Part shown: positions 14,228-24,904 of the stretch, in pieces | Layout of the letters: each line of letters begins with the position of its first letter | Position numbering within the stretch: position 1 is the first letter of the stretch | Assembly (NCBI GenBank): GCA_963716815.1 | Contig: CAVQUM010000012.1 | Coordinates: 145,030-209,029 of the forward strand | Length of the DNA: 64,000 bases | Direction: 5' to 3' | Source of the DNA: an uncultured Chloroflexia bacterium | GTDB taxonomy: Bacteria > Chloroflexota > Limnocylindria > Limnocylindrales > CSP1-4 | Translations under genes and position numbers: made by a program | Notes under the pieces: model-generated | Seen by the model: the letters and a program-made list of their open reading frames with translations, nothing else | Databases searched by the model: none | Told to the model about the DNA's origin: nothing

Positions 14228-14458
14228 CAGTCCTCCTCGTGGCCGTCCGGTGTCCGCTGCAGACTAGCGGGCGCCGCCGTCGCTCCGCCGGCCGCCCCGG
14301 GCATGGGGCACCGCCGCCGTTCGTCGGCACGATCCCTTGGGGGCGCTGCCGCTCGTCGACGCTATTCCCTCAGGTGGGATATCGGTCAGTTCTGCCCTCC
14401 CTCGCCCAGTCAGATTGAGGCATATTCCATGCCCTCCAAGGGAATGGCGGGCTCCCGA

Positions 14459-14556
14459 GGGATAGCGAGCCTCCGTGGGATAGCGAGCCTCCGTGGGATA
14501 GCGAGCCTCCGTGGGATAGCGAGCCTCCGTGGGATAGCGAGCCTCCGTGGGATAGC
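14459..14556 (+). repeat. 18-bp tandem repeat GGGATAGCGAGCCTCCGT x5 plus 8-bp partial
   Basis: Read directly: perfect units with no spacers. Confidence 0.97.
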
Positions 14557-14604
14557 TGGCCACCGGGCCCCGGACAGCGGGACCTCGAGACGTCGGGGCC
14601 GCCC

Positions 14605-14700
14605 GCGACGAGCCCATCCCGCAACGAGCCTACCCCGCAACGAGAGCACCCTGCGACGAGGGCACCCTGCGACGAGGGCACCCTGCGACGAGGGCACCCT
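14605..14700 (+). repeat. 16-bp tandem repeat GCGACGAGGGCACCCT x6 (three perfect, three degenerate at the 5' side)
   Basis: Units start at 14605, 14621, 14637, 14653, 14669 and 14685. Confidence 0.93.
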
Positions 14701-14822
14701 GCGATCGAGTCGGCCCGGGACCGGTATGCCTCCGGGGGCCTGGAATATGCCTCAATTTGACTGGGCGGCAGGGGGTGGGTCCCCGTGACATGCGAGCTGG
14801 GGGCATAGAACCCAGCCAAGGG

Positions 14823-14892
14823 GCGAACGCAGCCGGGCCGCGAACCAGGCCGCGAACGCAGCCCGCCCGCGAACCACGCCGCGAACCCGGCC
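14823..14892 (+). repeat. 29-bp tandem duplication x2.4 built of GCGAAC subunits
   Basis: 14823-14851 and 14852-14880 are identical at 26/29 positions, followed by a partial third copy. Confidence 0.8.
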
Positions 14893-16729: not shown

Positions 16730-17833
16730 CGAACAGCCGAGCCGGGGAGCGCCGTCAGGTCGATCTCGCACAGGCGGACGGTGTCGATCGCGTCGGCCTC
16801 GCACGCGTCAGTCCCTGGGCCGCCCTGCACGACGTCGCTCTCGCCGTCCACGCCCGCGAGCGTGTCGTCACCGCCGATGCCGAACATGCGGTCCCGACCG
16901 CTACCGCCCACGAGCAGGTCGTCGCCTGGACCGCCGCGGACGATGTCGGGGTGCGGCCCGCCGTAGAGCGTGTCGTACCCGCTGTTGCCCTTGAGCGTGT
17001 CCTTGCCGCGCCCGCCGTAGAGCCGGTCGGCGCCACGGCCGCCCAGCAGCCGGTCGGCGCCGTTCTCACCCAACAGCGTGTCCGGCCCATCGCCGCCGAA
17101 GAGGAAGTCGGCATGCATGCCGCCGGCCATGGTGTCCCGTCCGCTGCCGCCGACCAGTCGGTCGTCGTCCGGTCCGCCGACGAGGACGTCGTCGCCCGGT
17201 CCGCCGAAGAGGGCATCGAAGCCCTCCGCGCCGACCACGCGGTCATTGCCGCCGCCGCCCTCGAGGCGATCGCCATCAGGGCCGCCGAAGAGGCGGTCGG
17301 CACCTTCGCCACCGAAGAGCCGGTCACGCCCTCCGCCGCCGCGGACGACGTCGGATCCATCACTGCCCACGAGCACGTCGTGGCCGGCCCCGCCGAGCAG
17401 TCTGTCGTCGCCGTCACCCGCACCCACACGGTCATCGCCGTCGCCGCCGCGGATGATGTCGTCGCCGTCGCCGCCGTAGACGACGTCCGCTCCGGTGCCG
17501 CTGAGCAGCCGGTCGTCACCGAGCGAGCCGCTGATGATGTCGTCGCCGTCGCCGCCAAGGACGAGGTCGTCCCCCTTGCCGGCCCGCAGGATGTCGTCGC
17601 CGTCGCCGCCGATGAGCGTGTCGTTTCCGCCGCCGCCGACGATGAGGTCGTCCCCGCCCAGACCGCAGATGACCTCGCCTGCGGGCGTGCCGGTGAGGCG
17701 GTCGTCGCCATTCGTGCCACTGATGTCACACGCCGGTGCTGCGGCCGCCGGAACGATGGCAGCGAGCGCGAGCGTGGTGGTGCCGAGCACGGTCAGCAAG
17801 ACGGTGCGGGGCACGGAGATCACTTCGATACAT
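16726..17833 (-). CDS. Secreted calcium-binding protein with RTX/hemolysin-type GGxGxD repeats
   Basis: Signal peptide ending AAAAP followed by many GGxGxDxL nonapeptides. The AGGAGG-ATG at 17833 is out of frame by an indel; the alternative start is GTG 17814. Confidence 0.85.
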
Positions 17834-22670: not shown

Positions 22671-23159
22671 CTACGACGCGGGCTTGAGTGGGTAGATGAC
22701 CTCGGTCAGCCACTTGCCCGGGTCGGGTTCGGCCGAGGGGTCGGTGAGATAGAGCTCCCACGGGCCGCCGTTGGCCACGTAGTCCTGCGAGGCCTCGAGC
22801 CAGCGGTTCATGGCCTGGTAGGTGGCAGCGAGCGTGTCGTACGGGCCGGCGTGGACGGCGATGGCCGCCGGTCCGGAGGGCAGTCCGCTGGGCACGACCT
22901 TGCCGTCAGGGGCGATCGGGGCGCTGACCATGAACCCGGCCTCGAAGTCGACCGTCGCACCGTACGAGTGATAGCGCGCGAACGGCGCGCTGGTGGCGTC
23001 CACGCGCTGTGTCTCGAGGGCATGTCTGACGGCCTGGAGCGCGCTGCCCATCTGCAACGACAGCACCGAGGCGTCGACCTCCTGGCGCATCGTCGCGGTG
23101 TGGTGGCTCCGCAACACGCGAAGCTCGATCTTCGAAGACGGTCCTCGTTGGTCAGGCAT
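22671..23159 (-). CDS. GyrI-like domain protein
   Basis: PFARYH, HAGPYDTL.ATY..M..W and WELYLTDP..EPDP.KW.TEV.YP. Confidence 0.87.
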   Translation of the reverse strand: MPDQRGPSSKIELRVLRSHHTATMRQEVDASVLSLQMGSALQAVRHALETQRVDATSAPFARYHSYGATVDFEAGFMVSAPIAPDGKVVPSGLPSGPAAIAVHAGPYDTLAATYQAMNRWLEASQDYVANGGPWELYLTDPSAEPDPGKWLTEVIYPLKPAS

Positions 23160-23527
23160 GACGGCACCTCTGCGGTCGGTAGTGAGACTGTGCCGCGTCG
23201 TCCGCCCGAACGCAAGCCGCTGATGGTCATGTCGATCGATGTCTTCGGCGCACCCATTGCCGACCCCTTTCGGTTGCCCGTTCGCCTGCTGTTCCTCCTG
23301 GCGCGCTATTCCCCTTGGGGGCAGACCGAAGGGAGAGGCCCCCCTTCGGCCAGTCCGGTTGAGGCATACCTGGGGTCCCGATGGGGAATATGCCCAGCCG
23401 ATCAAGCCCGGGGATGGGAAGGCCGAAGCCCACGAGAAACGCGACCCAAGCCTGAAGTCAGCGCGAGGCGATGCCGGGAAAAGGCTGAGGTGGTCCCTGG
23501 AACAGGGTGAGACCGCACAGTGTCCGC

Positions 23528-23926
23528 ATGCCCTACCTCTTGCCCGACGGTGAATGGGACCGGATCCTGCTGCGAAGGTTCGGGGTTGCGCTGCGCCGAT
23601 GCCGGCTCGCGTCCGGGTTGAGTCAGATGGTGCTTGCCGAGCGCTCGGGCGTCTCACAGACGACCATCTCGCGACTCGAGAACGGCAAGGCACCGGCCGT
23701 GTCCGTCTACAAGCTCCTGCGCCTGGGCGACGTGCTCGGGCTCGGGTTGCCGCTGGCCTTCTGCCCGCACCGCCACCACTGCGCGTGGCGCCCGTTGCGG
23801 GAGGACGGCTCCGAAGACCGTCGCCACGAACCAGCCGTTGCGGACGACTTCTGGCGCAGCCTCCTGCCGGACGAACCAGCCAGCCTCCTGCCGGACGAAC
23901 CAGCCAGCCTCTTGCCGGACGAGTGA
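23528..23926 (+). CDS. XRE-family helix-turn-helix protein with C-terminal Cys/His motif
   Basis: LRRCRLASGLSQMVLAERSGVSQTTISRLENG, then FCPHRHHCAW. It ends in LLPDEPAS repeats. Confidence 0.8.
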   Translation: MPYLLPDGEWDRILLRRFGVALRRCRLASGLSQMVLAERSGVSQTTISRLENGKAPAVSVYKLLRLGDVLGLGLPLAFCPHRHHCAWRPLREDGSEDRRHEPAVADDFWRSLLPDEPASLLPDEPASLLPDE

Positions 23927-23956
23927 GCCAGCCAGCCTCCTGACCTCGAGTGAGCC
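23857..23956 (+). repeat. 24-bp tandem repeat CAGCCTCCTGCCGGACGAACCAGC (two perfect, two degenerate) spanning the HTH stop codon
   Basis: Units start at 23857, 23881, 23905 and 23933. Confidence 0.9.
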
Positions 23957-24240
23957 GTGAGCCCATTGGCCTGCCTGGTGGGTTCCATCGGGAGGACAGG
24001 CCCGCCCGGCATCACGAGTGCAGCCCGTCTTATGCCTCCAAGGGGACTTAGATATGCCTCAACCAGACTGGGCGGAGGAGGGCCTGTTCGTCCGACACGC
24101 CCCCAATGGGCATAGTGCCGGCCCACACCCGGCTTGCGTCCACGGCCGAGCCTGGCCCAGGCCCGCGGAGGAGGCCTACCTGGACCGCCGAGCCCGACAC
24201 GGTCGGAACCCCGGACGGAGAGGGGCGGTAGGCTGGCGCC

Positions 24241-24904
24241 ATGAGACGTCGCCCAATAGTGCTCCTGGTACTGACCTCAGCCCTCCTGCTGTCGGGTGTG
24301 CCGGCCGGGGCGCAAGGCGACACGCCATCGGCCACCCCGGAGCCTTTGGCCTCGGCACAGGCGACCCAGGTCCCGTCGGTGTCGAGATCGGGCCGGCCGG
24401 ACCTGTACCTCAAGATGCCGTACTACATCGGCGGCTTCGAGCCGGACATCGTGATGACCAGGGGGGAGGAGCATTTCGCCAACCTCGACGTCGGCGACCC
24501 GAAACGAGCAGAGCTCGAGAGCTTGCTCGAGACGGTCGGAGCGGAGGCCGACGATCTGGTCTCGGGCTACGCACTCGTGTCGCAGGAAGACTTCTTCAGC
24601 TTCGTCGTGGCCATCCGCGTCGACGGGATCGACACCGGGCACGTTGCTCCCTGCCTACCTGCCCATCCTCTACGAGGACCTCGAGGATCCGCGGAGCGTC
24701 GCCACGCAGATGGCCGGCCGCGATGTCACCATCATCACTTCGCTTGGCAGCGACGATGAGTACGTCGAGCTCTATGTCTATGACGAGGGCGACACGATCT
24801 GGATGCTCCAGGGTCCCCTGAGCGTGGTCGAGACGACCCTCGCCAATCTGCCCGACCCGCTGCCGATACCAGGGGAAACGACGCCAGGGGAAACGACGCC
24901 ATAG
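24241..24904 (+). CDS. Secreted hypothetical protein (frameshift ~24645); paralog of 45135-45740
   Basis: Signal peptide and acidic body. C-terminus GDTIWML....VVETTLANLP is similar to GDALWLL....LVEETVESLP. Confidence 0.65.

Follow-up and report, generated by a model that had tools for sequence, protein, structure and literature searches.

The window analysed here is a 64,000-nt stretch (C12:145030-209029) of the metagenome-assembled genome (MAG) of an uncultured Chloroflexia bacterium (G000; 3.58 Mb, 69% G+C, 78% complete). It contains a module, denoted B, in which the gene for a small XRE-family helix-turn-helix (HTH) protein lies between two mutually inverted arms, each carrying two direct copies of a bipartite sequence unit. 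The gene and an inverted bracket of this type occur together in near and distant relatives. We propose, with a probability of about 0.6, that the protein binds both arms and thereby forms an autoregulatory loop similar to that between the OL and OR operators of phage lambda.

The HTH protein and its Cys/His tail

The HTH coding sequence (CDS; nt 23528..23926, plus strand) specifies a protein of 132 aa with a conserved C-terminal CPHxHxCxW motif, the only member of its family in the genome. The longest form of the open reading frame (ORF) begins at nt 23507, and the start was assigned to ATG 23528 because the N-terminus MPY is conserved in all 13 homologues. Judged by G+C content at the third and second codon positions (GC3 0.85, GC2 0.50), it is the sole coding-looking ORF between the arms. 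The protein matches Pfam HTH_31 (1.6e-14, 54.4 bits; cut-off 27) and HTH_3 (9.8e-11, 42 bits; cut-off 23) and, with a five-helix HTH above the Pfam gathering threshold, belongs to the XRE / Cro-C1 superfamily. Comparison of the window gene with four orthologues gave ratios of nonsynonymous to synonymous substitution rates (dN/dS) of 0.06-0.27 at a dS of ~0.8-1.1, and it therefore encodes a constrained protein under purifying selection.

Modelling (AlphaFold2, AF2) placed helices at residues 9-69. A profile search of PDB sequences returned generic XRE proteins only, namely HigA (6af3, 1.9e-9), C.BclI, C.AhdI, 434 repressor, SinR and HipB; going by sequence profile, the closest solved structures would be those of dimeric operator-binding XRE proteins. 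Pfam found no domain besides the HTH in the 132-aa protein, and specifically no S24 peptidase or CI-type oligomerisation domain, and NCBIfam and PHROGs likewise matched the HTH only. No known catalytic fold was recognised in the 110-140-aa HTH protein by Pfam, the PDB profile search or AF2. The neighbouring genes (GyrI-like, SIMPL, a secreted hypothetical protein and DUF4395) include no toxin or restriction-modification (R-M) genes. A role as the antitoxin (HigA/HipB-type) of a type II toxin-antitoxin pair is not supported, as there is no adjacent, co-oriented toxin gene.

Beyond the HTH, the tail of the protein reads PLAFCPHRHHCAW. It includes FCPHRHHCAW (residues 78-87, nt 23759-23788), of which the CPHRHHCAW codons (residues 79-87, nt 23762..23788, plus strand) specify the family-defining Cys/His motif. 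A preliminary description of this DNA had recognised an XRE HTH followed by FCPHRHHCAW as the only gene between inverted arms, and the ORF, the Pfam matches and the 88-nt inverted repeat described below bear this out. Twelve homologues of the window protein were collected, and their contigs were retrieved for comparison of the flanks. Across these, C79, P80, H81, H83, C85 and W87 are conserved at 90% or more, giving four conserved residues of ligand type (C79, H81, H83 and C85). When 1.84 billion cluster representatives were searched exhaustively with a profile, many single-domain proteins of 100-240 aa were returned, and 58 distant representatives, each standing for one 50%-identity cluster, were retrieved. 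All but two or three of them share the motif P-(L/F)-(G/A)-x-C-P-H-x-H-x-C-x-W about 10 residues past the last HTH helix, and the exceptions look frameshifted or truncated. Pfam, NCBIfam and PHROGs hold no curated model for the Cys/His tail. Because the tail is nearly invariant across its members, the group represents a wide XRE subfamily that is nameless in curated libraries.

Structure prediction of the tail, suggested in the preliminary description, succeeded for the HTH part, with a predicted local distance difference test score (pLDDT) of 85-96 over residues 10-70, and failed for the tail itself, where the AF2 monomer fell below 50 (residues 77-84). The Cys/His tail, of which the model is thus of low confidence, is possibly a metal or redox site. 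The residue between the two His of its HxH varies (R, H, P, D or G) without being hydrophobic, nor does a conserved Tyr follow, both of which speak against a Y1 (HUH) transposase. Two distant members of the family (L098 and L210) have a neighbourhood in common that comprises genes for an ArsR-type HTH_5 protein, a thioredoxin and a double-zinc-ribbon protein, a sign that this branch may operate in a redox or metal context.

The 3' end of the gene overlaps a 24-nt tandem repeat of 3.4 copies (nt 23857..23942, plus strand; Tandem Repeats Finder (TRF), repeat family D8), which encodes the last 20 residues as (LLPDEPAS)n and continues beyond the stop codon. Its copy number differs among strains, as a public contig from run X1 lacks 27 nt at 23920. 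In other modules, unrelated tandem repeats sit between gene and arm.

Paired units in inverted arms around the gene

Arms were searched for genome-wide with blastn and with R1, a sequence-only covariance model built from an alignment (A3) of 13 arms. The left arm of module B (nt 23303..23396, plus strand; inverted repeat I1, alignments A1/A3, R1 75.7 bits) contains an outer imperfect palindrome, CTATTCCCC-TT-GGGGGCAGA, followed by unit 1, CCAGTCCGGTTGAGGCATA (23350-23368), and then by unit 2 with the box GGGGAATAT near 23382-23390. The right arm (24025..24118, minus strand; R1 72.9 bits) is inverted relative to the left and carries its unit 1, CCAGTCTGGTTGAGGCATA, at 24053-24071 on the minus strand. 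Aligned as an inverted repeat, 23303-23390 and 24031-24118 span 88 nt and are 72% complementary. A second pair in the window, element A, is gene-less. Its left arm (14360..14448, plus strand; R1 68.6 bits, alignment A1) and right arm (14722..14810, minus strand; 68.9 bits) flank an interior (14455..14709) whose sole content is tandem repeats (18 nt x5.7 and 16 nt x5.7; TRF), with no ORF, and the right arm lies 128 nt upstream of an Aminotran_5 gene (start 14938). The arms of A, aligned over 14362-14448 and 14722-14810, and those of B are homologous, with a mean column identity of 72% over the four. Allowing at most one mismatch, TTGAGGCATA occurs seven times in the window, compared with 0.55 expected, and five of the seven occurrences are within arms.

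Aligning 34 arms of 11 genomes revealed a universal core of two direct units of ~21 nt, CCAGTC-N6-7-GGCATAT followed by yCnAGTy-N6-GGGGCAT(A/G). The preliminary description had pointed to G(A/G)G(C/A)ATA boxes 21-22 nt apart; these were confirmed in the window, and the same unit-to-unit spacing is found in about 40 of 44 arms in 11 genomes. The repeated unit proved to be longer than first described (CCAGTC-N6-7-GGCATA). The outer imperfect palindrome, CTAT(T/G)CCC-N3-5-GGGC(A/G)TA, is limited to some clades. In the 3.58 Mb of G000 the word CAGTC-N6-7-GGCATA occurs eight times, seven times in arms and once as a chance match. A scan of 185,579 species genomes for exact CCAGTCNNNTTGAGGCATA gave 87 single matches, which are attributed to chance because none extends past the pattern.

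Two other explanations of the arm sequence were considered. An outward mini-ORF ('MPQPDW') starting at the core ATG was rejected, as its length varies (13 aa in the right arm of A, whereas that in the right arm of B runs into another gene) and arm variation lacks codon periodicity. The outer TAT(T/G)CC and inner GG(A/C)ATA boxes covary in the window's four arms, and several minimum free energy folds close a stem between them, as would be seen if each arm were a structured RNA or a hairpin resembling repetitive extragenic palindromic (REP) sequences. With 18 arms this covariation breaks down (11 agree with it and 7 disagree), the outer half is altogether missing in one clade, folding z-scores range from -1.8 to +0.7, and RNAalifold on 13 arms gave -1.7 kcal/mol with no long-range stem. 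There was also no Rfam match. On the single folds, RNAalifold, Rfam and the count of covarying boxes, a structured arm was rejected as extremely improbable.

Genomes of the genus were searched with the HTH protein, a protein profile and R1. Close orthologues have a plus/minus arm pair, one arm on each side, at 12 loci (R1): that of the window, L096, L097, G006, two in G046, G049, G004, G069, G064, G068 and, weakly, G024. On short contigs that reach only one side of the gene (L099, L100, L101, L104 and L105) an arm is present on whichever side is available. The preliminary description had proposed to discard its idea of end binding if homologues lacked the flanking arms, and every close orthologue has them. 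Seven weaker paralogues with CPHxHxC are also found in the genus (L111-L117). All five that were scored (L111, L113, L114, L116 and L117) have an inverted repeat of their own, which in four of the five holds a GAGTC-N6-8-(G)CAT-type unit, and the other two (L112 and L115) show weak R1 matches on both sides.

Counting the five scored paralogues, distant CPHxHxC members (10 loci) carry inverted repeats of their own, most of them with a CAGTC or GAGTC word. L098 (P0012), from an Anaerolineaceae MAG, has TAGTCGCTCAGTCGCATA three times in direct orientation upstream, and the 3' end of its CDS contains an inverted copy of 22 nt (95% complementary). At L209 (P0058) two copies in direct orientation precede the gene, and a perfect inverted copy of 21 nt is located at the stop codon. 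Arms of 38 nt are found at L206 (P0094) and of 50 nt at L207 (P0164, on a 392-kb contig), the latter with tandem 22-mers between arm and gene. At L210 (P0047) a palindromic CCAGTCAGATTGGGCCGACTGG, the first 13-14 nt of which match the G000 arm core, lies upstream of the gene and a second copy lies downstream. Six generic XRE genes lacking the Cys/His motif served as controls and were scored against shuffled sequence, and in none of them was bracketing better than in the shuffles; the family total is 23 loci. On these sequence comparisons, gene and inverted bracket thus belong together across the CPHxHxCxW family, and the same results (arms, distant inverted repeats, no bracketing of generic XRE genes) favour the earlier proposal that the protein would bind the ends of its own element.

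The strict, family-wide pairing of a CPHxHxC protein with inverted arrays of units is the basis for regarding the units as predicted binding sites, a view that the constant spacing of two helical turns and the conserved state of the arms also favour. Orthologues in G000 and G006 differ by a dS of ~0.9, and since the arms of G006 still score 59-64 bits with R1, the arms are conserved well above neutral expectation. In the proposed mechanism the product, an XRE HTH followed by P-L-G/A-x-C-P-H-x-H-x-C-x-W, would be a sequence-specific DNA-binding protein. Its cognate sites would be the bipartite units (C/G)AGTC-N6-8-G(G)CAT(A), two direct copies of which, two helical turns apart, make up each inverted arm on both sides of the protein's own gene, at times with the extra outer palindrome. 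Dimers or higher oligomers would fill adjacent units cooperatively, possibly joined via the Cys/His segment with or without metal, so that this segment may be an oligomerisation element, a metal- or redox-sensing element, or both. Bound protein could then bridge the arms and close a 0.5-0.8-kb loop around the gene, giving tight autoregulation and perhaps control or insulation of neighbouring promoters. Arm pairs without a gene may be extra binding loci for the HTH protein, or leftovers after gene loss.

Occupied, empty and inverted sites

By blastn and R1, G000 contains eight arms in four inverted pairs, two of which (C4 and C9) were not in the preliminary description. Pair A (window 14360-14810) encloses tandem repeats only, pair B (window 23303-24118) the HTH gene, pair C4 (C4:195985-197070) a DUF2652 gene (Pfam 1.5e-25), and pair C9 (C9:357512-357797) about 110 bp and no gene. 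The interiors show no likeness to each other, and a blastn comparison with the interior of B found no HTH relic in A. Several unrelated tandem-repeat arrays lie inside and outside the arms of the C4 pair (G000 C4:195900-197200, L162), one of which duplicates the inner GGGCATAGGCACGTCC box. Tandem repeats also occur directly outside other arms (window 14823-14886; G000 C9:357440-357500), those at C9 repeating the outer box CTATGCCC every 18 nt, which suggests that the box-bearing ends of arms are prone to slippage.

Four arm pairs at unrelated loci of one genome raise the question of whether the module is, or was, mobile in the manner of REPIN-RAYT systems, with a single-copy gene and its inverted arms spreading gene-less doublets and occasionally captured genes. 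In that case the HTH protein would bind the ends, and some transposase, host recombination or the HTH protein itself would cut and join the DNA. We consider this unlikely, though several observations fit it. Inverted ends with several direct units are also seen in Tn7, Mu and Tn402. Many homologues are on 1-2-kb contigs that end at or near arms. Tandem repeats within MITEs (miniature inverted-repeat transposable elements) are reported to have precedent (PMC4596501). The arms supply the terminal inverted repeats of a MITE, but with eight of them in 3.58 Mb, none around a transposase, neither an autonomous relative nor a high copy number was found; the 78% completeness of the MAG limits how far the absence of a transposase-bearing relative can be read. 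No transposase or recombinase is in or beside any module, and the HTH protein has none of the known catalytic folds. Target-site duplications were not found at the four G000 pairs, where insertions may be too old to have retained one. The very low copy number and a core identity among G000 arms of 66-80% indicate that there has been no recent burst. At L098 and L209 the downstream site is in, or at the end of, the CDS, a location that suits an operator better than the tip of a transposon.

Module B has a single syntenic location, SIMPL(-) GyrI-like(-) / HTH / hyp(+) DUF4395(-), where hyp is the secreted hypothetical gene; in one clade it lies between SIMPL and DUF4395. The HTH gene had been described as cargo of the element, a view that this distribution corrects, as it is the constant partner of the arms, in single copy and at one syntenic site in many genomes. 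Seven genomes (G005, G013, G041, G009, G020, G067 and G070) have an empty GyrI-like/hyp site of 150-290 nt without arms, and in G052 SIMPL is directly beside DUF4395, the site again being empty. Occupied and empty versions of the same site are in keeping with mobility, but positions are kept across species at three loci, and the pattern as such fits gain and loss equally. Relics show that loss does occur. G001 retains an HTH fragment (residues 15-71) and one arm relic, and in G010 (L212, G010:C1:297400-298500) the HTH is truncated after residue 28 (MPYLGPETPGLAEMLRQFGAELRRCRYQ...) between intact CAGTC-N-GGGCATA sites. G010 retains further arm pairs. A two-frame HTH match in G010:C3 was dismissed as a hidden family member because it has neither the CPHxHxC motif nor the sites. 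Arm pairs are also present in G063, an 88%-complete MAG in which no HTH family member was found.

G046 has a second HTH module, bordered by the orthologues of those genes that in G000 lie on either side of the empty C9 pair, and the two G046 HTH proteins are sisters in the protein tree (88/82). As the orthologous site in G046 holds an intact HTH gene, C9 is a gene-less version of the HTH module, and the second copy at that locus can also be read as a sign of mobility. At the position of A, upstream of Aminotran_5, arm pairs occur in G064 and G063 as well and are gene-less in all three genomes. The preliminary description had taken A for an internally deleted, non-coding derivative of B; for A itself this is unsupported, given the lack of an HTH relic and the gene-less state in all three genomes, although derivation by deletion holds in kind for C9 and for the truncated HTH genes beside arm relics in G010 and G001. 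DUF2652 is flanked by arms in G000 only; in 13 other genomes its orthologues lack arms and have different neighbours, which would suit capture by a mobile module. In G049 and G069, a DUF2652 gene is located ~6 kb from the HTH locus.

The orientation of the HTH gene relative to its flanks is forward in 10 loci and reverse in four, and the protein tree requires at least two flips to account for this. The arm-bounded segment could accordingly be imagined as an invertible switch, recombination between the inverted arms flipping the gene, but this is very improbable. There is no recombinase nearby, the arms are equivalent so that flipping would change little, and the species differ from one another by fixed orientations, the result that infrequent homologous recombination between inverted repeats of 90 nt would produce. 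Public reads and contigs showed no mixed orientation, although they are fragments with a word depth of only 2-7x, too thin to tell.

Within a genome or clade, arms from different loci have the unit-1 spacer in common. It reads nGrTTGA in all eight arms of G000, CCTTCAC in six of six arms of G064, CCAyCTA in three of three of G006 and GrGTCkG in four of four of G063. At the orthologous A locus it differs among clades (nGrTTGA in G000, CCTTCAC in G064, GrGTCkG in G063), while among close genomes (G010 and G063, 83-89%) the arms do group by locus. A signature that follows clade and not locus would suit a mobile module, and a spacer shared across loci and differing among clades is also what would be seen with sites that follow a single trans-acting protein. 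Among the sequences compared, no clean rule connects the recognition-helix residues (QTT, QTS, QSM or QST) with the arm spacer. Binding to these sites could serve both regulation and rare rearrangement, and the two readings are not exclusive. By analogy with REPIN-RAYT systems, the whole arm-HTH-arm module might even be a new, minimal and long-lived genomic replicator built on an XRE HTH/Cys-His protein, in which the protein, alone or with host enzymes, would synapse the multi-site ends and so bring about inversion, duplication, capture of DUF2652 and homogenisation of the doublets; this we regard as quite unlikely. The module does not qualify as a REPIN-RAYT system in the strict sense, as only HTH families match the protein (no Y1/HUH) and the units have no consensus hairpin.

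Several observations weigh against an autoregulatory loop. Linked gene and arms would co-diverge even without interacting. The unit is no obvious palindrome, which a simple XRE dimer would prefer. A scan of 23100-24300 found no sigma-70-like promoter or terminator in or beside the B arms. Two of the four G000 pairs are empty, and the genes that flank C4 and C9 point towards each other with their 3' ends, an odd arrangement for operators. Presence or absence at one site, the second copy in G046 and the arm-flanked DUF2652 look more mobile than regulatory. Arm pairs persist where the HTH gene is truncated (G010) or no member was found (G063), so that over short times the arms can do without the protein. 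The existence of arm pairs without a gene, also in genomes without an intact one (G010, possibly G063), and the wealth of unrelated tandem repeats in the intergenic DNA around all copies would equally be accounted for if the arms belonged to another system, either as sites of an unrelated host protein or as an old repeat family, and the HTH protein regulated something else. Such a separation of gene and arms is distinctly improbable, given that the genome has no lone sites elsewhere and that the bracket recurs with differing sequences, in differing lineages and neighbourhoods, at the 23 family loci and at none of the six controls.

Neighbouring sequences and known systems

Some features near the module are recorded here in their own right. 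The secreted hypothetical gene to its right is split over two frames (24241-24759 and 24644-24904). Relatives have it as one intact gene of ~204 aa (L096 3159-3773), so that a frameshift or an assembly error is indicated at 24241-24904. Eight to 15 nt before its start codon is GGTAGGCT (24226-24233), a box with the -10-like TAGGCT that is kept in relatives and suggests a leaderless or very-short-leader transcript of this gene. On the other side, ACGCAAG(C/T)CGC(C/T)GATGGTC (23205-23232) is found ~50-75 nt upstream of the GyrI-like start in all genomes of the genus, with or without the module; it has no Rfam match and may be a leader or operator element of the GyrI-like gene. Further away, the minus strand of 16835-17698 has a long run of 27-nt (9-codon) repeats with GGxGxD-like codons, which looks like an RTX / hemolysin-type calcium-binding repeat protein.

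Autoregulation by XRE proteins and looping between operators are already known. The subfamily, its Cys/His motif, the predicted bipartite site and the self-bracketing with orphan doublets were in no curated library searched, and no paper on them was found. If the proposed loop is correct, the motif (C/G)AGTC-N6-8-GCAT(A) and a two-sided layout of sites can be predicted from sequence alone for a wide XRE subfamily, and the lambda-style layout of an enclosed repressor gene would extend to chromosomal genes of uncultured Chloroflexota-like bacteria. The module would then be a compact natural loop-forming part, possibly responsive to metal or redox state. Its gene-less doublets, presence and absence, and flips make it a tractable case of regulatory modules grading into mobile-element-like repeats.

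One of the systems most similar to the one proposed is the immunity region of lambda, in which the CI gene is situated between the operator clusters OL and OR. Both have a gene for a Cro/C1-type HTH protein between two mutually inverted clusters of adjacent sites, with neighbouring sites about two helical turns apart, and cooperative filling and long-range bridging, with a loop around the repressor gene, are proposed here by analogy. CI-mediated looping between OL and OR is the subject of PMC3708714. The module described here differs in having no phage context, S24 peptidase or CI-type C-terminal domain, a short CPHxHxCxW segment being present instead. Its units are not clear palindromes, the predicted loop is 0.5-0.8 kb compared with 2.3 kb in lambda, and the operator-like pairs also occur without the gene. 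Rco of the Bacillus plasmid pLS20 is likewise an XRE-type protein that binds cooperatively to two multi-site operators (OI and OII), loops the DNA and autoregulates (PMC4207663). Its operators, however, are confined to one side of the gene, where promoters diverge, and govern genes for conjugation, and Rco is a tetramer with another C-terminal domain (PMC4207663). The solved structures that matched best, HigA (6af3), HipB, C.BclI and C.AhdI, are small dimeric autoregulators acting on tandem operators; these operators are upstream only, the proteins lack a CPHxHxCxW tail, and toxin or R-M genes do not adjoin the gene in the present case.

Two mobile systems also share features with the module. 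REPIN-RAYT systems consist of a single-copy, largely vertically inherited gene between inverted units, which also form long-lived, gene-less inverted doublets elsewhere (bioRxiv 10.1101/2021.07.10.451892; PMC3116915). RAYT is, however, an IS200-like Y1/HUH transposase, and REPs are hairpins of ~25 nt in tens to hundreds of copies, whereas the present protein is an XRE HTH without a catalytic fold and its arms are 45-90 nt long, unstructured and only eight in number. InsA of the insertion sequence IS1 is a small protein with Cys/His and HTH elements that is encoded between the inverted ends of a ~0.8-kb element and binds these ends. The protein described here has the same general composition and position, and end binding is predicted for it by analogy. 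IS1 also encodes the InsAB' transposase, while the present module lacks another ORF and is too small to accommodate a catalytic domain.

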